DNA of 64,000 nucleotides from a virus. A model generated the notes under the pieces. That model did no database searches and was not told where the DNA came from. It saw nothing but the letters and a program-made list of their open reading frames with translations. Position 1 is the stretch's first letter, and every line of letters begins with the position of its first letter. Below, in pieces: positions 1,753-63,998 of the stretch. Both the position numbers and the translations under genes were made by a program. The stretch lies in the IMG/VR virus record IMGVR_UViG_3300027509_000012; one strand, written 5' to 3'.

Positions 1753-2004
1753 TTGATATTATATAACATGGAAGATGTAAAAAAATTACTACACTATAAT
1801 TCCATGCTATTTTTTGGAATGATATTGTTGCTGTTCTTGGCTGGCAATGTAATAATTAATAATGAATTTCTAACAGGAATATTTTCATTGATATTCAATA
1901 TCAGTTATATGGTATTCTTACTATCTGTTTGGTTAATGGGTTGGAGATTTATTCAATTTCAAGAATTTATAAATCGACCTAATCGAGTAGTAGTTAAAAT
2001 CTAA
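1753..2004 (+). CDS. Small membrane protein with two predicted TM helices
   Basis: Two long hydrophobic stretches; AAGGA upstream. Confidence 0.6.
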   Translation: MILYNMEDVKKLLHYNSMLFFGMILLLFLAGNVIINNEFLTGIFSLIFNISYMVFLLSVWLMGWRFIQFQEFINRPNRVVVKI

Positions 2005-2195
2005 GATTTCTTTTTGGGTGTCTCATGTACCACTGCATGAGAAAATGATCTATGACAGCATTTATCTAAAACTTCTTTTTGTTGGGCTTCGTTCATTGAA
2101 GCCCAATTATTAATTTCTTCTAAAGTTCTATAACAGCCTGCGCACCTACCATTGCGTATTTCGCATATACGAATACATGGTGATAGGTTAGCCAC
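2001..2195 (-). CDS. DUF1289-like Cys-rich protein
   Basis: SPCIRIC...CAGCYRTLEEINNW signature; likely GTG start at 2195 overlapping the RNR stop. Confidence 0.8.
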   Translation of the reverse strand: MANLSPCIRICEIRNGRCAGCYRTLEEINNWASMNEAQQKEVLDKCCHRSFSHAVVHETPKKKS

Positions 2196-4092
2196 ATTTA
2201 GATCCACCACAGTCAGCACAAACGCTACATCCGCTTTCATATCGAACGTTTTCACTTCCACATTCTAAGCAAGTCGCGTTTTCTACTTTTTCACCATCAT
2301 TGACATAACCTGATAGTAATTTCTTTATTGCATATGTGAATGATCCTGCCACTGCATTTTCACTTCGATCAAGAGTTGCTACGATATTCTTAATGAACAC
2401 GCCATGACGTAGATTGAGACTTACAAGACGTGCAACTTTATTAATGTTGTTATCTTTATTCATCTTCTTTACTTGATCATCAATGTGAACCTGTGGAATG
2501 CCTTTGGATATGGCAAGTTCTAAAAGAAGATCAACCGCTTCGTCTGCGACTAATGAAGTTTCTGTATAGTTTGATTTAACAAACAATGCAAATGGTCGAT
2601 TTGAATCTGGAAGCATACTGACAGTACAATATAGTTTCTTCTTTTCAGCTCGAAGTACTTTAACTTCTGCTGGTGATGATTCTGGTAATTTAACATCTTC
2701 TAAGATGATTTCTTCTTCATCTGGAGAAGCAGTCTTTTCTTCGGCGGCAGACAATACAGAAGTCATGGTATTAGCTCGGTATGTAGTTAACCCTTTCAGG
2801 ACTTCTGAATTATATCCATCAAGATAAAGATTTTTAAATTTTTCATATGGATAATCTTCTGGGATATTGATCGTTTTGGAACAACTAGAATCTATCCAAT
2901 AAGCAAATCCCTTTAAATCTATAAGATGATCTTCTACTGATAAATCTAGTGTCGAAACTGCCCAATCAGCATCTGGGTTCCATTCATTTGATTGATTTAA
3001 TGAATGTACACCATAATCTTCACACAGAGTTTCTTTTGTTAAGCCACGATTTGTGTCTATTTTATAAACCGTCCCATCTGGGCCGATGCCTTTAAGGATT
3101 GTTTCATCCCCCTCTTTTGTAAATTTAAACATTTCTGTTTCATGAAATTCACCTTCATACCATTTCGGACAAACATCAGCTATATCATCTGGCATAGAAT
3201 TTATAATACTTGTACGCACGTAAGATGGCATAAAGATTGGTTCTAAACCACCAGAAACAATATTAGCCGCTATTCCAGTGTTACCCGTAGGTTGAATAGA
3301 TAATAAGTTTGAATTTCGAATGCCAGTAGTTCGAAGTTTCTGCATATATTCTTCTGGGAGGTTTAATCTTTTTACAAATTCCGCTTCTGCGTGTAATTCG
3401 GGTTTGCAATAAGTATACATACCTCTTTCTATTGCCAAATCAATTGATGACATGTATGCTTGCTGTGCTATTGCCGACATAATTTGTTCTTTAATCACTT
3501 CTGCCTTTTCTGATCCAAATTTAACTTGTAACATATATAAAGCTGATCCCCAACCCATAATTCCAATACCGATTCGACGTTTATGATCGCGAGAATAATC
3601 ATATTCAGGTAATGGTGTTAAAGATACGTTGTTTACATTATCTAAAAACCTCACCAGATACGAAACAGTTTTTCTTAACTCAACAACATCGAAACCACTT
3701 TTATCTTCATTAATAAATTTAGTAAGATTGATACTAGACAAGCAACAAATACCACCTGATAATGCTAAAAGCTGCTCTCCACATGGGTTACTGGCTTTAA
3801 TTTTTTCGCTCGGTTCATACGTTGATGGTGCTAATTTATTTGCACGCTCTAAAAACAATACGCCGGGTTCTGCTCGATTATAAGTGCTTTGCATAATCAA
3901 ATCCCAAAGATAAGAAACTTTCACTGTTTTATGTACAATAACTGGATATTCTAATTCTTTCCAATCAGATAAAAATCCATTCCATTTTTCTGCATACATT
4001 TCATGTGTAGTATCAGGGAATTCTAAATTCCAATTCTCAAGTTCTTCAATTTCTTTATCTATATCTGCTATCTGCTGTTCAATATTATTCAT
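2188..4092 (-). CDS. nrdJ: Class II (B12-dependent) ribonucleotide reductase, C-terminal fragment
   Basis: AEPGVLF, NPCGEQ, CCLSSINL, RRIGIGIMG, IQPTG, GLEP, SKTIN, single-Tyr TYR; TSCPD-like domain and C-terminal Zn ribbon (CLECG...CADCGGSKCG). Confidence 0.9.
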   Translation of the reverse strand: MNNIEQQIADIDKEIEELENWNLEFPDTTHEMYAEKWNGFLSDWKELEYPVIVHKTVKVSYLWDLIMQSTYNRAEPGVLFLERANKLAPSTYEPSEKIKASNPCGEQLLALSGGICCLSSINLTKFINEDKSGFDVVELRKTVSYLVRFLDNVNNVSLTPLPEYDYSRDHKRRIGIGIMGWGSALYMLQVKFGSEKAEVIKEQIMSAIAQQAYMSSIDLAIERGMYTYCKPELHAEAEFVKRLNLPEEYMQKLRTTGIRNSNLLSIQPTGNTGIAANIVSGGLEPIFMPSYVRTSIINSMPDDIADVCPKWYEGEFHETEMFKFTKEGDETILKGIGPDGTVYKIDTNRGLTKETLCEDYGVHSLNQSNEWNPDADWAVSTLDLSVEDHLIDLKGFAYWIDSSCSKTINIPEDYPYEKFKNLYLDGYNSEVLKGLTTYRANTMTSVLSAAEEKTASPDEEEIILEDVKLPESSPAEVKVLRAEKKKLYCTVSMLPDSNRPFALFVKSNYTETSLVADEAVDLLLELAISKGIPQVHIDDQVKKMNKDNNINKVARLVSLNLRHGVFIKNIVATLDRSENAVAGSFTYAIKKLLSGYVNDGEKVENATCLECGSENVRYESGCSVCADCGGSKCG

Positions 4093-5618
4093 TATAGTGC
4101 CTTTAGTTTATATTTTATTAATCCACAATCCCATATTCTATAGAATCCATTATTTTTACAATTTACATATTCACTTACATTTTCATCATAGTTTTTTAAT
4201 TTCTTTTTTAATATAGATTTTCGAAATGAAAATTTATGTATTCGTTTTGTTCCTACTTTATATCTGTAATCAGGTTTAGTTATGTATTCAATTTTAAATC
4301 CAGTTTTTTCGTATAAATTACCGTTACTCCATCGACGATCTGCAAAGGTAAATAAATCATAATTTCTATATTTTGATATTATCTTAGAGAAACCACCAAC
4401 TACGTGTTTTGATGATGCATAGCGAGTAATCATTAATCCATCCTTTTCTTTTTTAAATAATGCAAGACATACTAATTCATCGTTATCATCAACTAGCCCG
4501 GTTCTAATGGATGATCCACCATATCCTTGAATATGATATTTAGACATAAAGTTTTTAGCTGAATCAACATCAATATTATATTTTATATTTGTTTTTCTGG
4601 CGTATACTTTCTCTCTATTATCTGTTTTTAATAAACTTAATATTTTAGATTTTACTAATTCTTTTGAATGTAACCATTCATCCTCAAAGATTGTAATAAG
4701 CTGAATTCCAACTTCTTCACACATTTGAGTTTTTCTTAAATGATATTTTTTGTCTATTTTATGCTCGATTGCTTCTGAATGCCAATAAAGTCCACAATAT
4801 TCAAACGCTATATTTTTATCAGGTATGTTTATGTCTAATTGATAAGGTGCAATTGTTTTATTGTCTGAAGTTATTATTGGGCAATCACAAATAGTATGAA
4901 TAAATTCAGATAATTCTCTTTCTTCTGTTGAAATAAAATGGGTTTTGGGTTTAATATTATGTTTATTAAAATATCGAGAAACCGTTGTTCTATTTACTGA
5001 AAGGTGATTTGCAATTTTACCCAAATGCATAGTTTTATTTAATTTTTTGAGTAATTCTACATTCATTAAATCATCATGTGGAAATTCTTCGTTTAAATGA
5101 TAATTATAATTTAGTGTGCCGAATTTATCAATCATTGTTTCCTGTTGTTTTTCTAAAAGTTTTTTATTCTTTAACGGAGAGGTCACTCCAAATTTATCAA
5201 TCATTCCATCAACAACTTTTTGTTTTCCTTCATCTGAACTAAAAAAATAATCTGAACCATATTTTTCTTTACATGTAGTTCTTATTTTATCGCTAACAAA
5301 ATTTGAGTTTGCGGAACATTTTAAAGAACAGAAACGATTATAACCTTTTATTCTACTAGGACTTGGTTTGTTGGCACGATCAACCCATGTAGTTATGTTT
5401 TCACAAGATTCATTACCACATATAATGGGTTCTTTAATATTAAGCCTAACATTATGTAGCTTTTGAAGGTGGGAAATATTTGATGGAAATTTTTCATTCC
5501 ATTGATCTAATAAATCAGAAACTGTAGAGTTACTTTTTAATAAGCGAACTGCTTTTTGACTAACTCTACCCGATTTAGTAATAATTCCAGCATCAATTAA
5601 GTGATCAGTTAAATTCAT
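4092..5618 (-). mobile_element. Free-standing putative homing endonuclease between the two RNR fragments
   Basis: N-terminal C-x4-C...CSLKC Zn motif, 'KYG/KFG' repeats, PD-(D/E)xK/Vsr-like 'LDINIPDKNIAFEYCGLYWH', C-terminal 'FADRRWS...RIWDCG' domain; AT-rich; abuts both RNR fragments. Confidence 0.8.
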
Positions 5619-5619
5619 T

Positions 5620-6354
5620 TTATAGTTGTTTTTCTAATTCTACCTTTTTTGCTTTGAGTTCAGCTATTCGATTTACTCTGTCCATAAATGCATCGGTGCA
5701 ATTTACTGAAATATTAAATTTACTTAAACGGCCTGCGGTTTGTTTAGCAGTAATAAACTCAACAATATCTGGATGAGTTACATCAAGAATTCCCATCATC
5801 GCACCTTTGCGGATCTTAGTTTTCTTTGCAATGTTTTTAGAATCTGTGTCCGCACCAGCTCCACTGGTTATAACATCACTGCTTTTATCAAAAAGTTCCA
5901 TAAATTTTACAGCGCCGGGTGTGGCAGCACCAACTCCCATTATATCCGCACCACGAGGGCGAATATAAGAAAAATTCTCTCCCCAACCACCTTCACTTTT
6001 TAATGTCTGAGCTTGTGATCTTAAATGGGCCAAAATACCATCAAGTGAATCAATATCGTATTTTTCGGTTGGGCCAACAAAGCAATTAAATTGCGTAGTC
6101 TTACCATATCCAGCTCCAGCGTTTGATAAAATCCGGCCACCCGGCACGACTTTAAAGCCATTTAACATCTCATAAAAACGATCTTCCCAGACTTCTTTAT
6201 CTTTTTGGTTATCTTCTCCATCAGCGATTCCTTTAGCTACACGTTGAAAAGTGTCGTCTATCGTTTCGTCTGAGTGATACTTGTAAGTGGTTTCCCAGAT
6301 TTCTTGTGAAAAATCATTCGTAAATTCAGTTGGGGGCAGATTGGACTTTGACAT
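5620..6354 (-). CDS. nrdJ: Class II ribonucleotide reductase, N-terminal fragment
   Basis: VPGGRILSNAG, FNCFV, GGWGENFSYIRPRG, RKGAMMG, HPDIVEFI, FNISV. Confidence 0.9.
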   Translation of the reverse strand: MSKSNLPPTEFTNDFSQEIWETTYKYHSDETIDDTFQRVAKGIADGEDNQKDKEVWEDRFYEMLNGFKVVPGGRILSNAGAGYGKTTQFNCFVGPTEKYDIDSLDGILAHLRSQAQTLKSEGGWGENFSYIRPRGADIMGVGAATPGAVKFMELFDKSSDVITSGAGADTDSKNIAKKTKIRKGAMMGILDVTHPDIVEFITAKQTAGRLSKFNISVNCTDAFMDRVNRIAELKAKKVELEKQL

Positions 6355-6392: not shown

Positions 6393-6455
6393 TATTTATA
6401 TTGACCCGATTACATTCATGTCATTAATCATATCTGATTGTGTGACATGTTTCAA
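6393..6455 (-). promoter_or_regulatory. RNR promoters: sigma70-like TTGAAA-17-TATGAT and late-type TATAAATA
   Basis: -35 at 6455-6450, -10 at 6432-6427, TATAAATA at 6400-6393 on the minus strand. Confidence 0.5.
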
Positions 6456-15649: not shown

Positions 15650-17248
15650 ATGAGTTACATTTCTGCTGTAAAGAAAAACGAAACAGTATTTGTTTGGGAG
15701 CGAGATAACGATGGTAACAGGGTAACTAAATCTTACCCTGCCCCGTTTTATTTTTACTCTGGCGATAAGAATGGAAAGCACACCAGTCTATATGGTGAAC
15801 CACTCGAACGCTATGATTTTACTTCCGACTCTGAGTTTTATAATACGAGAAAGAAAGCTATCCAACATGGATATGATTTGTATGAATCAGATATTCCACC
15901 AGAATTAAAAATCTTATCAGAACATTATTATAATGTTCCCGCACCCAAGCTAAATGTGACCTTCTACGATATAGAGGTTGATTACGATACTAGTATAGGA
16001 TTTAGTTCACCATCTAATCCATACGCGGCTGTGAACGCGATAGCTATGTTTCACACTCATAAAAACCAAATGGTAGTTATTGCCATCCCACCAAAAGATG
16101 CCAACTGTGATGTGCCTGACGTTGGTGTTGCTGGTGAAGATTACATTAAAAAAATGAACGACATTACTCCCATTATAGATGGAGTAGACATTGTGATAGA
16201 ATTCTATAAAACTGAAAAAGAAGTTCTTGAACGGTTTTTATTAGAAATCGAAGATACTGATTTAATATGTGGTTGGAACAACAGTGGATTTGATGATCCA
16301 TACATGGGCAAGCGATTAGAATTAATGGGTAAGAAATATTTTAATAAAATGTCATTTGTTGATGCTCCCAATCCGAAATGGAAAATGGTTGAAATTTTTG
16401 GTAAGGAACAACCAGTCATAGAATTGTTTGGTAGAGTATCATTAGATTATCTTACGCTGTTTAAAAAGTATATGATTGAAAATCAACCATCATATAAACT
16501 AGATAACATTGCAGATAAGTTCTTACGTACTGATGGCAAGCCAGATATGCCAAAATTGGAATACGAAGGATCGCTAGCTAGATTATATAAGGATGATTTT
16601 GATTATTTCATTCGATACAATATCCGTGATACAGAAATTCTGTTTGGTTTTGAAAATAAATTAAAATATGTTGCGCTGGCTAATGAAATGGTGCATTTAT
16701 CTACTGGTTTATTTCAACACGTAGCTGGAACAATCAAATTGCACGAACTATCTGTAATAAATTATTGCCATCACGAAATGGGTGGAGTAATCGTTAACGA
16801 TAAAAGAGATAATGATTGGGGTGAAGAAAAAATCAAAGGTGCAATTGTTTTAGATCCTGTTACTGGAATGCATGAATGGAGTAGTTCAATAGATTTAAAT
16901 AGTCTATATCCTTCTGTAATTCGTGCTAATAATATATCACCAGAAACAAAAATAGGACAATTTAAATTAGAAGAAGCTGCGGTGGACCACATTCGAAGAA
17001 AGAGTGATACCCAATTGATATTTGAAAAGGTTAACGGAAAGATAATATCAAAAACTGGAGCTGATTGGAGGAAGTATTTACTTGATCATAATTGGTGTAT
17101 TAGTGGATTTGGCACAGTGTTTAATATGAATAAGCAGGGAGTTGTTCCTAAAATTTTGGAAGATTGGTATGCTAAAAGAAAAACGTATCAAAAACAAATG
17201 ATAGAAGCTAAAGATGCTGCTGCCAAAATATTAGAGAAGTATAAGTAA
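15650..17248 (+). CDS. gp43: Family B DNA polymerase, N-terminal fragment (exonuclease, motif A, first fingers helix)
   Basis: YDIE, GWNNSGFDDPY, YNIRD, SIDLNSLYPS, 'GVVPKILEDWYAKRK'. Confidence 0.92.
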   Translation: MSYISAVKKNETVFVWERDNDGNRVTKSYPAPFYFYSGDKNGKHTSLYGEPLERYDFTSDSEFYNTRKKAIQHGYDLYESDIPPELKILSEHYYNVPAPKLNVTFYDIEVDYDTSIGFSSPSNPYAAVNAIAMFHTHKNQMVVIAIPPKDANCDVPDVGVAGEDYIKKMNDITPIIDGVDIVIEFYKTEKEVLERFLLEIEDTDLICGWNNSGFDDPYMGKRLELMGKKYFNKMSFVDAPNPKWKMVEIFGKEQPVIELFGRVSLDYLTLFKKYMIENQPSYKLDNIADKFLRTDGKPDMPKLEYEGSLARLYKDDFDYFIRYNIRDTEILFGFENKLKYVALANEMVHLSTGLFQHVAGTIKLHELSVINYCHHEMGGVIVNDKRDNDWGEEKIKGAIVLDPVTGMHEWSSSIDLNSLYPSVIRANNISPETKIGQFKLEEAAVDHIRRKSDTQLIFEKVNGKIISKTGADWRKYLLDHNWCISGFGTVFNMNKQGVVPKILEDWYAKRKTYQKQMIEAKDAAAKILEKYK

Positions 17249-19467
17249 TGCCAATTAGAAAAGGAATAAAAATAAGCAAAGAAGATGCAATTGAATATGA
17301 TCGTTTAATTGCGGAAGCTGAATACGCAGACAGAATTCAGTATGTACTGAAAATAAAATTGAATGGTTTTTACGGCGCACTTTCTAATCAACACTTCAAA
17401 TTTGGTGATAGAACATTGGGTGAATCTACAACTGCTGGTGGGAGACATATAGTAACGCATCAACATCGAAAAGTTAATGAACTTTTGGCTGAAGAATATG
17501 ATGAATTTGGTGATGGTATCATATATGGAGATTCAGTAGCTGGTGATACTATTATAAAAACTTCTACTGAATCATTAAAAATTGAAGAATTATTTACCCA
17601 TATAGATGAAATAAAGAATAATAAAGAATATTGCAATCGTGGTGATATAAAATCATTAACCTTTAATGAAGCCACTCAACAAAATGAATATGGAACTATA
17701 AAATACGTAGTTCGTCATGCAGCAAAAAAACAAATGTATCGCATTCATTATGGAAACTTGCGCTATATTGATGTTTCTGAAGATCATTCTCTTATTGGAT
17801 ATGCTAATACTAAATCAAAAACACCCGGTCAATTAGTCAATGTAAAACCTACAGAAATAGGCAAGAATGGTATTAATAGTATGTTATTGAATACTAATAA
17901 TTTACACACACCAACTGATATTACTGAATATCCAAAAGAGTTATATATATTAATGGGTCTTGTATTGGGTGATGGATATGCCGATAATAAAACAAACGGT
18001 TGTACACATTTGTCCACTGGATCTAAAGATAAAGAAGAAATCGTTAAACATGTATTAAATCCCCTGATAGATGCCGGGTGGATTACTAGTATTGGTCATA
18101 GAAAAAATGATCATGATATTAATTTACACGGTGCAAAATTAAGAGTGTTCTTACGTAATCATTTATATGATGATGAATCTATAATAAAAAAAATTCCTGA
18201 TTTTTTATATAATGATTCAATTGAACATATTGGATTATTTTTAAATGGGTTATTTACCGCTGATGGTACTGTCATCAAGGGGATTCCAAGATTATCTTCA
18301 ATAACGATTAATCATATTACTGGTGCAAATGAACTACTTAAATTGTGTGGTATTGGTTCTAATTTTTGGCAAGAAAATACCGAAAATTCATATGATGGAA
18401 TTAAATCTGGAACATTTAGTATTATTCTTAACGTATATGATGCTGTCAGATTTGAACAACTTGTTGGTTTTTCTTTAATAAGAAAACATAACGCAATTAA
18501 ACTCGATTGTAGTACTAGAAAAATACATTTAATTGGTCAAAATGGTTATACGCATATAACTCCCACTAATATAGAAAAGATAGAATCACCAAAATATATT
18601 TACGATATTGAAGTGGAAAATACCCATATGTTTTATGGTAACGATATATTGTTACACAACACTGATTCAACCTACTTTCATACTTTCACTGATAATACAG
18701 AAGATGCTCGTGAAGTAGGAGATGCTATTGCTGATGGTGTAAATAAATCATTTTCTAAATTCATGAAAGAATCATTCTTAATAAATGATGATTTTGATGG
18801 AATAATTCAGTGTGGCCGTGAGATTGTTTCCAAGCGTGGTATTTTTGTCATGAAAAAGAAATACATGCTTCATCTAGTTGATCTAGATGGTTATGATGTA
18901 GACAAACTAAAAGTAATGGGCTTAGATACAAAGCGAACCACAATCCCAAAAACAATATCCACAAAACTAGAAAAATTCATAGAACGATTGCTTAAAGGTG
19001 AGTCGTGGGATGATATTGAACAAGATATTGTTGATTATAAAGATGAATTATTAACTGGAGAAAGTATTCTGGATATCGGAATACCATCTGGAGTTAATAA
19101 GATAGAAGAATACACACAAGCTCTAAAGCTAGATCCAAAGACTTATTTGCCCGGCACTGTTGCGCCCTGTATACACTATAATCAGTGTAGAGAGCTGCAT
19201 AACGACAATGAGAGTCCCATGATAACTTCTGGAATGAAAACAAAGAAGTTTTTCTTAAAAAAGAAGAATGGTAGATTTGGAACTATTTCATTGCCAACTG
19301 ATATGACAATATACGAAATCCCTGAATGGTTTAAGGATTTTGAAATTGATAAAGACACTCACATGGATCGACTTGTCGATGCTCCAATTAATAATGTTAT
19401 TAAGGCTATTGGTGAAGAATCACCAACAAAGCAAAGTATGCATTTAAAATCTTTATTTGAATTCTAA
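17248..19467 (+). CDS. gp43: Family B DNA polymerase, C-terminal fragment, intein-containing
   Basis: Motif B QYVLKIKLNGFYG; motif C YGD//TDS interrupted; KKKY, KVMGLD. Confidence 0.92.
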   Translation: MPIRKGIKISKEDAIEYDRLIAEAEYADRIQYVLKIKLNGFYGALSNQHFKFGDRTLGESTTAGGRHIVTHQHRKVNELLAEEYDEFGDGIIYGDSVAGDTIIKTSTESLKIEELFTHIDEIKNNKEYCNRGDIKSLTFNEATQQNEYGTIKYVVRHAAKKQMYRIHYGNLRYIDVSEDHSLIGYANTKSKTPGQLVNVKPTEIGKNGINSMLLNTNNLHTPTDITEYPKELYILMGLVLGDGYADNKTNGCTHLSTGSKDKEEIVKHVLNPLIDAGWITSIGHRKNDHDINLHGAKLRVFLRNHLYDDESIIKKIPDFLYNDSIEHIGLFLNGLFTADGTVIKGIPRLSSITINHITGANELLKLCGIGSNFWQENTENSYDGIKSGTFSIILNVYDAVRFEQLVGFSLIRKHNAIKLDCSTRKIHLIGQNGYTHITPTNIEKIESPKYIYDIEVENTHMFYGNDILLHNTDSTYFHTFTDNTEDAREVGDAIADGVNKSFSKFMKESFLINDDFDGIIQCGREIVSKRGIFVMKKKYMLHLVDLDGYDVDKLKVMGLDTKRTTIPKTISTKLEKFIERLLKGESWDDIEQDIVDYKDELLTGESILDIGIPSGVNKIEEYTQALKLDPKTYLPGTVAPCIHYNQCRELHNDNESPMITSGMKTKKFFLKKKNGRFGTISLPTDMTIYEIPEWFKDFEIDKDTHMDRLVDAPINNVIKAIGEESPTKQSMHLKSLFEF
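17533..18660 (+). mobile_element. Intein (376 aa) with LAGLIDADG homing endonuclease in polymerase motif C
   Basis: Begins SVAGDT; block B 'VSEDHSL'; LMGLVLGDG and FLNGLFTADG; ends 'YDIEV...LHN' before Thr+1. Removal restores YGDTDS. Confidence 0.93.
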
Positions 19468-38498: not shown

Positions 38499-39488
38499 TT
38501 ATCTTTCTGTAATTATAGGATTAATTTTATTAATAAAATATTCCAATTTTTTATTTTCAGGCATATTTTTTGAAAATTCGAAATATGGAATTCGAAATAT
38601 TTCAATTTTATTATCTACTGCTAATCGATTTTTAATTAAATCCGCTTTTTTTAATTTAATAAAATTCAAAACTCCACCAAAAAATTTAATAGGTTTATAA
38701 TGCTGTCTTCCATCTAATTCAAATATTACATCAATATCTTGCAAATAAAAATCATAACGACCTTTTTTATTTCTGGGGTTATTACTCAGATTTAATGTAC
38801 TATATTCCCGAATATAATTGATATTTGGATGTAATTCATTTAAAAAATATTCAAATGAATTTTCTGTTTCCTTTCCAATTCCGCATTTCGGACATCCCTT
38901 ACGATTCAAGTGATCATTAGGGCGTTGATTAAACGATCCGTGTTTTTTACAATTAATTTTTACCTTAATATTTGATTTTATATAATCAACATCATTGTAA
39001 CTATATAAGTCATTATGAATTATTTTAGCTTTTTTTATAAATTCAATAGTATTACTTGTTTGATTATTTGAAATTTTATATTTCCCACATTGAGGACAGC
39101 CTTGACCAGATATATGAGTTGACGGTAACTGCCAAAAATATTTTTTATGAAAATTACAATAAATTTTTATTTTTGTTTTTGCGTTAATATATTTAACTAA
39201 ATTATAATTATATAAATCACCATGTGTATTTTTTGCTTTAATATTGAAATCATTTCTTGCTTTTTCATTTTTAGCATTGGATCTTTGTTCAATACCACAT
39301 TTTTTACATCCTCTACTATTCAAATGATCGTTTGGTGATTGACTAAATTTTCCATGTATATGACATATTATTGATATTTTTGTATGATTATTTACATAAT
39401 CAACTAATTCATAATTGAATAAATCACCATGAATCATAATTGCTTTAGTAATAAACTCTTTAGTTGATATTGCGTTAAAATGTGGCAT
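38499..39488 (-). mobile_element. Putative homing endonuclease (3 Zn-binding repeats plus Vsr/DUF559-like nuclease)
   Basis: Three 'IHGD..NY..V.Y...KI.I.C..H...HL..GC..C' repeats; 'RYDFYL...FELDGRQHY...D..KN'; very AT-rich; between gp25 and the wedge gene. Confidence 0.8.
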
Positions 39489-47090: not shown

Positions 47091-48819
47091 TTTTAAAAAG
47101 CTAATACTGCAAAATTTTCTTGGTTTTGGTGAGATACCAACTGAGTTTTTATTTGAACGTGATGGTACTACATTAATATGTGGTATTAACGGTGTTGGTA
47201 AATCATCACTGATCAATGGACTTGTTTATACATTATACGGCAAGCCTATGACAAACAGTGTTGGTAAGGTCGATGATCTTATTAATTTTGTTAATCAAAA
47301 GCGTATGCTAACAACTGTAGAGTTTGAAAAGGATGGCTCGTTATATAGAGTAGAGCGAGGCCGTAAGATGAAAACAGGTGCTGCTGGTAACTATGTGCAA
47401 GTATTCAAAGATGGTGAAGATATAACATCTGCTGGTGCTATAAATGGTAATAAGCTAGTAGAAAGTATTATCAATATTCCATACGAGCTGTTTATTAGAA
47501 TAGTTGCCATTTCGTCAACTTATACTCCATTTCTATCATTACCTGTTAAATCTGCCAAAGGTGCTAACCAGACAGACATGATCGAAGAATTATTTAATCT
47601 AACAACATTGACTGAGAAATCTGAAGTATTGAAAGAACAGATTAAAGAAACGAAACGATCTATAGAACATCAGATAGTTAAACGAGATACACTCGAAGAA
47701 GAACGTGAAAAACATACTGATCGAGTTGTCACTGCTGAAGAACGATTGAATAAATGGAATGCAAGCAAAGAAGAAGAATTAGAAGAACTAAATGATCTTC
47801 TTAATAAATTTTCAGCTATCGATGTTGATGCAGAGCAAAAAGTATTTGAAGAACTTGAAAGTCTTGAAAATGAACTACGAGAGCAAAGCTCTCCACGTAG
47901 ATCAGTGAAATCAGTTCTTACTAAGGAAAAGGAAACCAAAGAGAAAACGGAGCACGATCTTAAACATTTGTCTGATGGTAACTGCCCTTATTGTAAACAA
48001 GAAATGGCTGATGCTAAATCTAAAATAAAGGCATGTCAGAAAGTATTAAAAGCATGTAATCAAAGCATTGAAGAAAATACAGAATTGCTCCAAGAGATTG
48101 ACGATAAGATAGAAGAAATCGATCTTAAAATTAATGCACTCGAAGGAACTACTTCAGTTAATTCAATTGCTGAATTATTCGATAGTCGTAATAAGATTGA
48201 GAAGTATTCAGAACGATTGGAAAAACTTAACAATGAAGAAAATCCACATGAAGAAGCATTCGATGAATTATTAGAAATCAGTATTAGTGATTTTGATAAT
48301 GCAACGATAAATGAATTGGATGATTTAATGACTCATCAAAATATGGTTCTTAAATTATTAACTAAGAAAGATTCATTTATTCGAGTTAATCTGATCAATC
48401 GAAGTATTCCTTATTTGAATAAACGATTGAATCATTATTTACATCAACTTAAATTAACTCAGGTTATTGAATTTAAATCTGATATGACTGCAACAGTAAG
48501 TCAATTCGGACGTGGATTAGATTTTGGTAATTTATCGAATGGACAGAAAACTAGAGTTAATTTAGCAGTATCTTTTGCATTCCGTGATGTTTTACAGAAT
48601 TTACATGGACATATAAATATATGTCTGCTTGATGAGCTACTTGATCAAGGACTTGATACCGAAGGTGCGCTTATAGCAGCAGACATGTTAAATCACAAAG
48701 CTGAAAATGAAGATATATCTATATTTGTTATTGCTCATAAAGAAGAACTCCAAAACAGCTTTAAATCTAAAATCAAAGTAACAATGGAAGATTCATTTAC
48801 TAAAATTAATTATGATTAA
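47083..48819 (+). CDS. gp46: Recombination ATPase, Rad50/SbcC-like
   Basis: GINGVGKS, Zn hook CPYC, LSNGQ, LLDE, IAH. Confidence 0.93.
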   Translation: MINFKKLILQNFLGFGEIPTEFLFERDGTTLICGINGVGKSSLINGLVYTLYGKPMTNSVGKVDDLINFVNQKRMLTTVEFEKDGSLYRVERGRKMKTGAAGNYVQVFKDGEDITSAGAINGNKLVESIINIPYELFIRIVAISSTYTPFLSLPVKSAKGANQTDMIEELFNLTTLTEKSEVLKEQIKETKRSIEHQIVKRDTLEEEREKHTDRVVTAEERLNKWNASKEEELEELNDLLNKFSAIDVDAEQKVFEELESLENELREQSSPRRSVKSVLTKEKETKEKTEHDLKHLSDGNCPYCKQEMADAKSKIKACQKVLKACNQSIEENTELLQEIDDKIEEIDLKINALEGTTSVNSIAELFDSRNKIEKYSERLEKLNNEENPHEEAFDELLEISISDFDNATINELDDLMTHQNMVLKLLTKKDSFIRVNLINRSIPYLNKRLNHYLHQLKLTQVIEFKSDMTATVSQFGRGLDFGNLSNGQKTRVNLAVSFAFRDVLQNLHGHINICLLDELLDQGLDTEGALIAADMLNHKAENEDISIFVIAHKEELQNSFKSKIKVTMEDSFTKINYD

Positions 48820-50047
48820 TAATAAATTAAAAAAATTTCCATTCTCAAGTAAAGCATGTATTAAAGAAAAAACTGATATTTTCTTACATAATATGAAAAT
48901 TATTTATGGCGATGAATATGATTTCTCTGAATTTATATATAAAAATTCACATACCAAAGGAATATTCATATGTCCAATACATGGAGAACGAAGATCAACG
49001 CCAAGTTCTTTAATGCAGGGTGTTAAATGTAGAGCATGTACTGGTAATTGTCCAATCCATGCGAAAGAACAATTTTTTATAAAAATGAAGGAATTACATC
49101 CTTCATATGATTTTTCTAAATTTTCTTATAAAAATAATAATACAAAAAGTATTGTCATATGTCCAATACATGGTGATATTAAAATGTCAGCTAATAAATT
49201 ACTTATTGGTAGACGATGTGGTTATTGTTACGGAAATTTAAAAGAGAAAGGAAAAGAAAGATTTTTTAAAGAAGTAAGAACAATACATCCAAATTTAGAT
49301 TTTTCAAAATTTAAATATAATACAATGAAAACAAAGAGTGTTTATATTTGTGATATACATGGAGAAAGATCAGCTATAGCGGAAAGTTTAATTAATGGAC
49401 ATGGATGTTCTGTATGTGCTGGTTTATGCCCTGAACATTCTAAAAAACAATTCCAAAAATCAATGAATGAAATTCACCCTACTCTAGATTTTTCAAAATT
49501 TAAATATACCGGATCACATAAAAACGGGAAATATTATTGTACTAAGCATGGATTTAAATTTGCAACTCCCACGAATTTATTACAGGGAAAGGGATGTATT
49601 GATTGTAATACAATTGGACAAAAAGAAAAAAACGTTTTTAACTATATTAAATCAAATATACAAGATTGTATTATTTTTAGTAATAAAAAACCGCCATTTT
49701 TAAATGGTCTTGAGTATGATATTATAATAATATTACCAAATAATATTATTATTGGAATTGAATATGATGGACATCAACATTTTAAACCAGTCACATTTGG
49801 TGGTATTAGTCAAAGTAAAGCAGAATATAATTTAATATATCAAAGAAAGCGAGATATTATTAAAAATAAACTAAGTTTTGAACATGGGATTCATTTATTT
49901 AGAATTCACCATAAAGATTATGAAAAAAATCATTATGATCTATTAGACGAAATTATTTATGATGTAGAAAATTTAATCGGATATCCTGAATTTGGTGGTT
50001 CTCTTAGATACACAGAATCTTATAATAAATCAGACAAATATTATTAA
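48812..50047 (+). mobile_element. Putative homing endonuclease (4 Zn-binding repeats plus Vsr/DUF559-like nuclease)
   Basis: Four 'YDFS.F.Y....K....CPIHG...L..G..C..C' repeats; 'EYDII...IEYDGHQHF...RD..KN'. Confidence 0.8.
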
Positions 50048-63132: not shown

Positions 63133-63172
63133 ATTCCAATATTTTAGTTCTGATTTTATTCCAATATTTTAG
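63129..63172. repeat. 19-bp direct repeat
   Basis: TTTTATTCCAATATTTTAG at 63129-63147 and 63154-63172. Confidence 0.85.
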
Positions 63173-63998
63173 ATCCCTTTGAAATATTTTCTTCCCATGT
63201 AAGCATCTGAAGATTATCTATATGAGCACATTCATCAATTGGTATATCATTATCAAAACAATAACGAACTGATTTAATATGATCTAATTGATAAGCACCC
63301 TCAACACCAGCCTTACCTCTTGGTAGATTATCAGGATTTATTAGTTCATGGTGTTTGTCATATATAACTTTAGTTGCTAAATGAACATCAGCTCTATATT
63401 TTTCCCAGTCACTTGCAGTTTTTCTATATTCAATAGATCGATTATTATTGTATTCATTAAATCGTCCTCGTTTTTTAATATCATTACATGTTCGACAATT
63501 AACATTTTTATATTTTAAATTGTCAACTCTACTATCAACGTCATGTCCACATATGTTATTTCTAACTCTGACTTTAAGATGTTTTTCGGTTGTGTTCTCT
63601 TTTTCATAATACCCAATAACCCTAACAAAAGTAAATTTATCACCAATAGATTCAATTAATTTTTTAACAGATTCTTTTTGTCTGTTTATTTTCAAACATT
63701 TAGGGCATCCACTGTTTCCAGTTTCTTTAAATGTTTGAATTTTTCCTTTTGGTGTTGCACTCCATACATGTCCACATTCTAAACATTCCATATCATGATG
63801 ATCACTTGCTTTTGTATATTCACTCAATAATCGTATTTTATTATTAACAAGTAATTTTTCTTCTATTGTTTTAGGTGAAACTTTTATTGCTTTATCGTTT
63901 GTAATTTTAAATCTAAGTTTTCCACTGTCCCATATACGAAATATATCATTATAGAATGTATTCTCATATTCTGTTTTATTTGAATCGAATTTATCCCC
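63156..63998 (-). mobile_element. Putative homing endonuclease with HNH domain, 5' truncated by window
   Basis: Frame is open to the window edge (GDKFDSNKTEYEN...FRIWDSGK); Zn ribbons CLECGH...GCPKC; HNH 'YQLDHIKS...NLQML...EN..K'. Confidence 0.8.

Follow-up and report, generated by a model that had tools for sequence, protein, structure and literature searches.

How can the gene of a ribonucleotide reductase (RNR) be cut inside its catalytic barrel, with a putative endonuclease gene lodged in the gap, and still specify an enzyme, and where do the oppositely charged peptides at its two broken ends come from? The question is raised by the class II RNR gene, nrdJ, in a viral DNA of 64,000 nucleotides (nt), IMG/VR record IMGVR_UViG_3300027509_000012, the whole of which is called the window below. 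The window carries genes for portal, major head protein, late sigma factor, SbcCD, and gp43, and is that of a T4-like large phage. The preferred answer, held here with a probability of about 0.68, is that nrdJ of this T4-like jumbo phage has been broken at the turn of a predicted helical hairpin, that a putative homing endonuclease gene sits in the gap, and that the two chains likely refold without splicing. The genes and the active-site stretch concerned are as follows.

5620..6354, minus strand: nrdJ-a, the N-terminal part of class II RNR, 244 amino acids (aa), with Cys91, ending FNISVNCTDAFMDRVNRIAELKAKKVELEKQL
4092..5618, minus strand: putative free-standing homing endonuclease, 508 aa, an open frame with DUF7487, phrog_3339, and a Vsr-like nuclease domain
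2188..4092, minus strand: nrdJ-b, 634 aa, starting MNNIEQQIADIDKEIEELENWNLEFP, with the rest of the barrel, the finger loop, a TSCPD-like domain, and the C-terminal cysteines
3745..3789, minus strand: NPCGEQ (N102, C104, E106) to C116 of nrdJ-b, the finger-loop radical cysteine and the second redox cysteine

The initial annotation had proposed a class II RNR in two genes with its catalytic cysteines on separately encoded chains, and both statements hold. The three open reading frames (ORFs) are confirmed, and the two halves tile the profile TIGR02504 NrdJ_Z (606 positions) free of gaps, nrdJ-a covering positions 18-211 and nrdJ-b 204-601. This is the best NCBIfam model of either half (144 and 289 bits, the rough sum exceeding the cut-off of 400), and an intact relative, P0004, scores 439 bits against it; the top fold matches are to NrdJ of Thermotoga maritima. 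The break falls at about profile position 210, i.e., inside the barrel, and it divides the catalytic set: Cys91 on nrdJ-a is the equivalent of T. maritima C134, while Asn102, Cys104, Glu106, and Cys116 lie on nrdJ-b, of which the two cysteines are equivalent to T. maritima C322 and C333 (numbering taken from the alignment of P0004). The C-terminus of nrdJ-b carries CxxC..CxxC..C. Each of the three proteins is recorded on three contigs, the longest of 302,232 nt, which may be re-assemblies of one sample. The reads of the one DNA run that contains the stretch, possibly the source sample, leave the junctions uncovered.

The peptides at the broken ends are referred to as arms.

5623..5682, minus strand: N arm, nrdJ-a residues 225-244, the first hairpin helix, net charge +2, core I230, L233, K237, L240, L244
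4033..4092, minus strand: C arm, nrdJ-b residues 1-20, the second hairpin helix, net charge -6, heptad I4/I8/I11/I15/L18

The heptad and the acidity that had been described for the head of nrdJ-b are present as given above. The tail of nrdJ-a had been called Lys/Arg-rich, and it does hold six Lys or Arg in 20 residues, but four Asp or Glu leave a net charge of only +2. It had further been assumed that intact NrdJ proteins span this site with a few residues. That is true of the cellular enzymes, where the distance from FN.S to W is 20 aa in 76 of 80 genomes, but not of the phage clade. Among the best 119 of 2,453 matches (120 listed, one being the query), 118 read continuously through a loop of 22-74 aa at this position, and the remaining protein lacks the upstream motif; the heptads are thus no tails added to the split gene, whereas the initial annotation had expected an alignment to confirm them as an insertion. 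The distinct intact loops (n=111) have a median of 44 aa, and 103 of them have at least 30 aa; the two arms of the window sum to 52 aa.

The likeness extends to the pattern of residues. In the 56 loops of at least 44 aa, the positions +3/+6/+9/+13 after FM are hydrophobic with frequencies of 1.00/0.95/0.89/0.88, and the positions -3/-6/-10/-13 before W with 0.70/0.64/0.75/0.54. The arms of the window fit seven of these eight positions, the exception being Lys at +13. In 55 of 63 intact loops the first arm is the more basic of the two, a polarity that the window shares. AlphaFold2 with 102 sequences models intact P0004 at a mean predicted local distance difference test (pLDDT) value of 86.5, with a helix at 218-239, a turn at 240-244, and a helix at 245-254 (pLDDT 94-98), so that the insert is predicted to fold as helix-turn-helix. 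The end of nrdJ-a is equivalent to position 241 of P0004, within the predicted turn. Judging from these comparisons, the arms have their counterpart in the hypervariable helical hairpin of intact relatives, which they match in position, length, register, and charge polarity, and the zipper is largely inherited.

Both halves fall inside the clade P0004-P0010 (FastTree support of 0.997 and 1.0) in trees built from seven close sequences and every third of the other 95, and all seven members of this clade bear loops, of 36-58 aa. The bit scores of the N-half and the C-half are uncorrelated over 117 relatives (rho 0.09); the trees still agree on the clade. Loop length varies between sister proteins over the tree, and loops of only 22-27 aa occur, so that the insert can be called hypervariable, and the uncut enzyme can probably do without it. 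Each arm of the window has one extra hydrophobic turn where intact loops usually turn. This turn, together with the clean heptad of the C arm, would fit either of two histories, in which the arms were refined to some extent once the gene had broken or descend from a longer hairpin like that of P0086.

The assembly of the two chains was modelled, as the initial annotation had suggested, using ESMFold2 without alignments on nrdJ-a and residues 1-450 of nrdJ-b. The complex scored 0.90 against 0.00 for the best of three controls, the runs agreed in at least 94% of contacts, and the pLDDT of the partners was at least 83; the mark set for this score is attained by 51 of 78 solved complexes and by 2 of 108 mismatched pairs. 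As the fold of the intact T. maritima enzyme is solved, the score probably reflects likeness to NrdJ structures rather than binding. The two chains are predicted to meet through the barrel, and both arms to take part in the interface, the C arm with nrdJ-b residues 4-5, 7-8, 11-12, 14-15, and 18-19 and the N arm with nrdJ-a residues 226-231, 233-234, 236-237, 240-241, and 243-244, both in heptad spacing, and the arms would pair as an antiparallel inter-chain coiled coil. By hand count they make up about a tenth of the interface (about 10 of 110 and about 14 of 112 listed residues). The barrel supplies all of the most certain predicted contacts, and the interface takes in the stretches with Cys91, Cys104, and Cys116. 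The idea that the halves re-associate through a charge-complementary coiled coil survives only in part: both arms do touch the other chain in the model, but they form a small share of the interface, and intact relatives have a corresponding predicted hairpin.

The sequence of events favored here would run as follows. The break falls at the turn of a predicted surface helical hairpin that is common to uncut relatives, and it would have been tolerated there because the hairpin was present. Two separately made chains would refold into one enzyme without splicing, with complementation of the barrel as the main driver of assembly, and the arms, probably lengthened by about one heptad turn and tidied in the acidic one, would re-form the former hairpin across the two chains as an antiparallel coiled coil. 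The role of the hairpin is probably that of an accessory clasp rather than the main glue.

The junctions on either side of the endonuclease gene, and the candidate promoter upstream, are as follows.

5613..5626, minus strand: left junction ACTATAAAATGAAT, the nrdJ-a stop, one base, and the endonuclease ATG, with no Shine-Dalgarno match
4087..4103, minus strand: right junction ACTATAATGAAT, a TAATG stop-start overlap, with an AAGG ribosome-binding match within the 3' end of the endonuclease gene
6393..6400, minus strand: TATAAATA, candidate T4-type late promoter upstream of nrdJ-a, one of seven copies in the window

The motif of the T4-type late promoter is as quoted in PMC2677866, and a scan for sigma-70 promoters remained at chance level (29 found against 27.4). 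The locus would be expressed as a single transcript with translational coupling at both junctions. nrdJ-b has its own start and the AAGG match exactly where the second helix begins, and the endonuclease gene is without such a match. The GC content of the arms was uninformative. As the initial annotation had held, the layout appears free of splicing. The noncoding room at the locus is one base, no Rfam match was found in the window at the gathering score or in 3800-5900 at E <= 1, no Pfam intein match was found in the proteins of the locus, and the arms scored no better than shuffles against a local N-intein profile. By these searches no splicing element is detected at the locus. Rfam likewise gives nothing for an intron-like insert in the locus L004, which makes its silence weak evidence. 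That insert (5291-5517) resembles a group I intron by eye, and L030, L139, L144, and L149 likewise have nrdJ broken beside NPCGE by inserts of about 130-290 nt.

The gene between the two halves finds a match in phrog_3339, ‘homing endonuclease,’ with E 2e-102. The profile of its family matches PDB 3r3p with E 8e-8, which is presumably I-Bth0305I. Because of these two matches it is regarded as a putative Vsr-like homing endonuclease. In a motif comparison at the sequence level, E233, D262, E273, and H280 are invariant in 52 family sequences and the residue after H280 is Ser; the EDxHD family is defined in PMC3239194. The GC content of the gene is 0.27 as against 0.39 and 0.35 for nrdJ-a and nrdJ-b. 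The endonuclease sequence alone as query found no close viral locus, and the family profile found 77 loci, none of them with nrdJ on the same strand. The family is mostly intergenic, and in the 42 of 52 listed flanking pairs that were scanned, no two flanks matched complementary parts of one PHROG.

In L208, L222/L223, L240, and L241, relatives of the endonuclease come next after an incomplete polB gene, and these loci look like fractured polB by eye; in L222, L240, and L241 the next gene begins with a C-intein-like peptide (again by eye), suggesting the same. The window has three further endonuclease-like genes of phrog_559, at 38499-39488 (minus strand), 48812-50047 (plus strand), and 63156-63998 (minus strand). 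Its gp43-type DNA polymerase is also in two genes, 15650-17248 and 17248-19467 (both plus strand), which overlap by a bare TAATG; the split apparently lies at the tip of the fingers, and the second gene holds a cis intein with a LAGLIDADG domain.

Other broken nrdJ genes bear on the hairpin. P0130, P0155, P0172, and P0241 are of the size of an N-fragment and have a common tail of about 50 residues after FM, unlike the arm of the window. Among these four, the locus was examined for P0155. In this locus, the metagenome contig L244, nrdJ-a (1406-2224) is followed by a DUF559 nuclease of 255 aa (2193-2960) and by nrdJ-b (2947-4830), and nrdJ-b has a head of 17 residues before W. The tail, the nuclease, and the head have GC contents of 0.28, 0.27, and 0.25 as against 0.44 for the host gene, and tail and head are non-helical-looking. 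The host protein P0241, which bears the same type of tail, is divergent. P0242, an uncut protein of the same 90% cluster, bears a hairpin-type insert at the L244 break site. No relation between the L244 and window nucleases was detectable by BLASTP (best E 0.05). As the L244 split is independent and has a different nuclease, the same loop is, on these comparisons, broken at least twice: host arms would have been kept in the window, and a cassette-borne pair would have replaced them in L244.

Several candidates and readings were rejected. L165 and L166 as carriers of the L244-type tail were false matches, the L244 tail is not supported as an intein remnant (11-124 of 200 shuffles reached its score on a rough local profile), and the break in L294 is a stray nrdJ-like piece within another ORF. 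P0131, P0133, P0142, P0154, P0170, and P0205 are short N-fragments that end in or near the loop, several of them on short contigs, and are left outside the count of splits. Breaks are also seen elsewhere in the gene. L028, L043, L049/L121, P0125, P0137, and P0152 are nrdJ relatives that break off at NPCGE and carry long extensions; several match an intein family of Pfam, and they are probable split inteins. In L053 (3983-7068), two overlapping frames make up an nrdJ relative that is interrupted near position 640, late in the barrel region, by a split or a frameshift. Next to nrdJ-b, on its downstream side, the window has a small DUF1289 gene (2001-2261, minus strand) and L244 a similar cysteine-rich ORF (4808-5059, plus strand).

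Several observations weigh against the inherited hairpin and the functional split. The heptad of the C arm is cleaner than that of every intact loop, as none of 63, 56, and 18 loops reach it at the three scan lengths used, and selection on the zipper is accordingly possible. The ten proximal arm residues score best with P0031, P0117, and P0075, all outside the clade of the window, and the mean score of the N arm is 15.7 with its own clade as against 18.4 overall; this likeness over ten residues to another clade is a weak hint that the arms were imported along with the endonuclease. No further copy of the exact split was found in 164 viral loci, many of them redundant. The near-invariant columns are retained in 78 of 82 cases in nrdJ-a and 173 of 182 in nrdJ-b, toward the bottom of what 15 intact comparators show (79-82 of 82 and 152-182 of 182), and the terminal branch of nrdJ-a is long, 0.37 compared with a median of 0.14; together these could mean relaxation.

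On the first two of these points would rest the view, patterned on phage Aeh1, that the halves cannot join without the arms, which would be zipper peptides of foreign or recent origin, either borne by the cassette or favored by selection once the gene had broken. Only 5 of 63 intact loops have a C arm of so low a charge, close to the acidic limit, the charge difference between the arms is matched by only 4 of 63, and the L244 cassette did bring its own AT-rich tail and head to this loop. Yet the position, total length, register, and polarity are those of the hairpin in intact relatives, among them the seven members of the window's clade, the heptad of the N arm is ordinary (its score is reached by 60 of 63 loops over 14 residues and by 4 of 18 over 20), the arms hold few of the interface residues, and none of the 77 endonuclease loci has a relative at nrdJ, all of which makes such an origin improbable. 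A bolder proposal, speculative and rather unlikely, is that the hairpin is a built-in tear line used repeatedly by unrelated endonucleases, that both arms of the window, lengthened and tidied, have turned a hairpin within one chain into an obligatory leucine-zipper-like clasp between chains that travels with the endonuclease, and that the L244 loop was repaired by an unrelated portable tail and head; if true, one enzyme loop would show two independent splicing-free solutions and a natural split site for class II RNR. Relaxation, in turn, would suit a dying pseudogene, with the phage depending on another reductase or that of its host. Both frames are open, though, the catalytic residues are intact, the changes in conserved columns are mostly conservative and none is catalytic, and the ribosome-binding match of nrdJ-b stands exactly at its second helix; no second RNR was found among the 31 large ORFs scanned in the window. 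Decay is thus a poor prospect, and the split enzyme is likely functional.

The alternative with the most in its favor, though still on the unlikely side, agrees with the preferred reading on function and differs in the cause: the gene would have split first, by a stop and a re-start in the hairpin tip, and the endonuclease would have entered later. ACTATAA precedes and ATGAAT follows both borders of the endonuclease gene, a coincidence with a post hoc chance of about 0.006-0.008 x 0.04, i.e., about 2-3 in 10,000, as derived from the gene ends and starts of the window and of 716 AT-rich phage genes. These border repeats, the mostly intergenic habit of the endonuclease family, and the bare TAATG at which polB of the same genome is split suggest that the gene may have split before invasion, and equal doubt has been voiced for gp43 of phage 25 in the text available (PMC2988022). 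However, CTATAA(A)(A)TG occurs nine times in the window and is thus common at the junctions of this phage, and no endonuclease-free split allele, nor any further copy of the split, was found among 127 distinct viral loops (15 of 224 loci being without the search motif). No further copy was found in 80 cellular loci or in six additional ones either. An unrecognized intron, intein, or ribosomal bypass that restores one polypeptide would agree with the normal loop length of 52 aa for the joined arms, but with a single noncoding base, no intein match, a gap of 1.5 kb, and no Rfam match (the last counting for little) it is very improbable indeed.

The principle of a splicing-free split enzyme is already published for Aeh1 NrdA and for fingertip-split gp43. 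NrdA of Aeh1 is split by mobE, and its basic tail and acidic head are foreign, needed for activity, and unneeded for the heterodimer; rather, they served the assembly of the tetramer (PMC3045599, as far as available, here and below). The locus of the window is alike in that a free-standing endonuclease gene splits the RNR barrel, apparently without splicing, the active site is composite with the redox cysteine pair on two chains, and a basic C-tail meets an acidic N-head (here +2 and -6). It differs in that Aeh1 has a class Ia enzyme with an HNH endonuclease whereas the window has a class II enzyme with a Vsr-like one, and in that the break of Aeh1 lies between the equivalents of E. coli C439 and C462 whereas that of the window lies between those of C225 and C439. 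The tails of Aeh1 are foreign and absent from intact relatives, but the arms of the window match a host hairpin, with an equivalent insert in the 103 of 111 distinct loops noted above (PMC3045599). The pieces of gp43 of T4-like phages associate and work, and fingertip-split gp43A/gp43B is likewise an essential enzyme cut in a variable tip between two helices with the endonuclease gene optional; the fingers hairpin of this family B polymerase is universal and catalytic, whereas that of NrdJ is clade-specific and missing from short relatives (PMC3061061; PMC2988022; both in part).

Fractured genes offer a further comparison. In NrdJ-1, NrdJ-2, and an intein-less SbcD-like locus, host halves lie around a Vsr-like endonuclease gene that overlaps the downstream half, and nrdJ is among the hosts of such fractured genes. 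Unlike the window, NrdJ-1 and NrdJ-2 use split inteins beside the thiyl-radical cysteine and end as one chain, and the extensions of the SbcD-like locus, unlike the arms of the window, are missing from intact proteins (available part of PMC2677866). Likewise, class II RNR is made from two genes in Pseudomonas aeruginosa (NrdJa/NrdJb) and in Thermus phage phiYS40 (nrdJ-a/b) (PMC4520616; PMC9669993; PMC3653736; all in part). P. aeruginosa NrdJa keeps the whole barrel whereas the window is broken inside it (PMC4520616; PMC9669993), and the genes of phiYS40 have a gap of 12 nt with no endonuclease in the account available (PMC3653736). The open-licence literature searched yielded neither a class II barrel split without an intein nor a description of this hairpin, and the novelty claimed in the initial annotation stands to that extent; oppositely charged tails on an endonuclease-split RNR had been published for Aeh1 (PMC3045599). 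The locus is set apart from Aeh1 and the fractured genes because its tails are not foreign and it has no split intein.

With this finding, gene fragmentation without splicing would reach into the catalytic barrel of class II RNR. The finding also points to a possible source for the clasp of such enzymes, namely a pre-existing, dispensable surface hairpin instead of random foreign DNA, and it touches on how such tails arise, which the Aeh1 paper leaves open in the part available (PMC3045599). With intact relatives of short, medium, and long loops, and a second split allele with another clasp, the role of the arms is directly testable.

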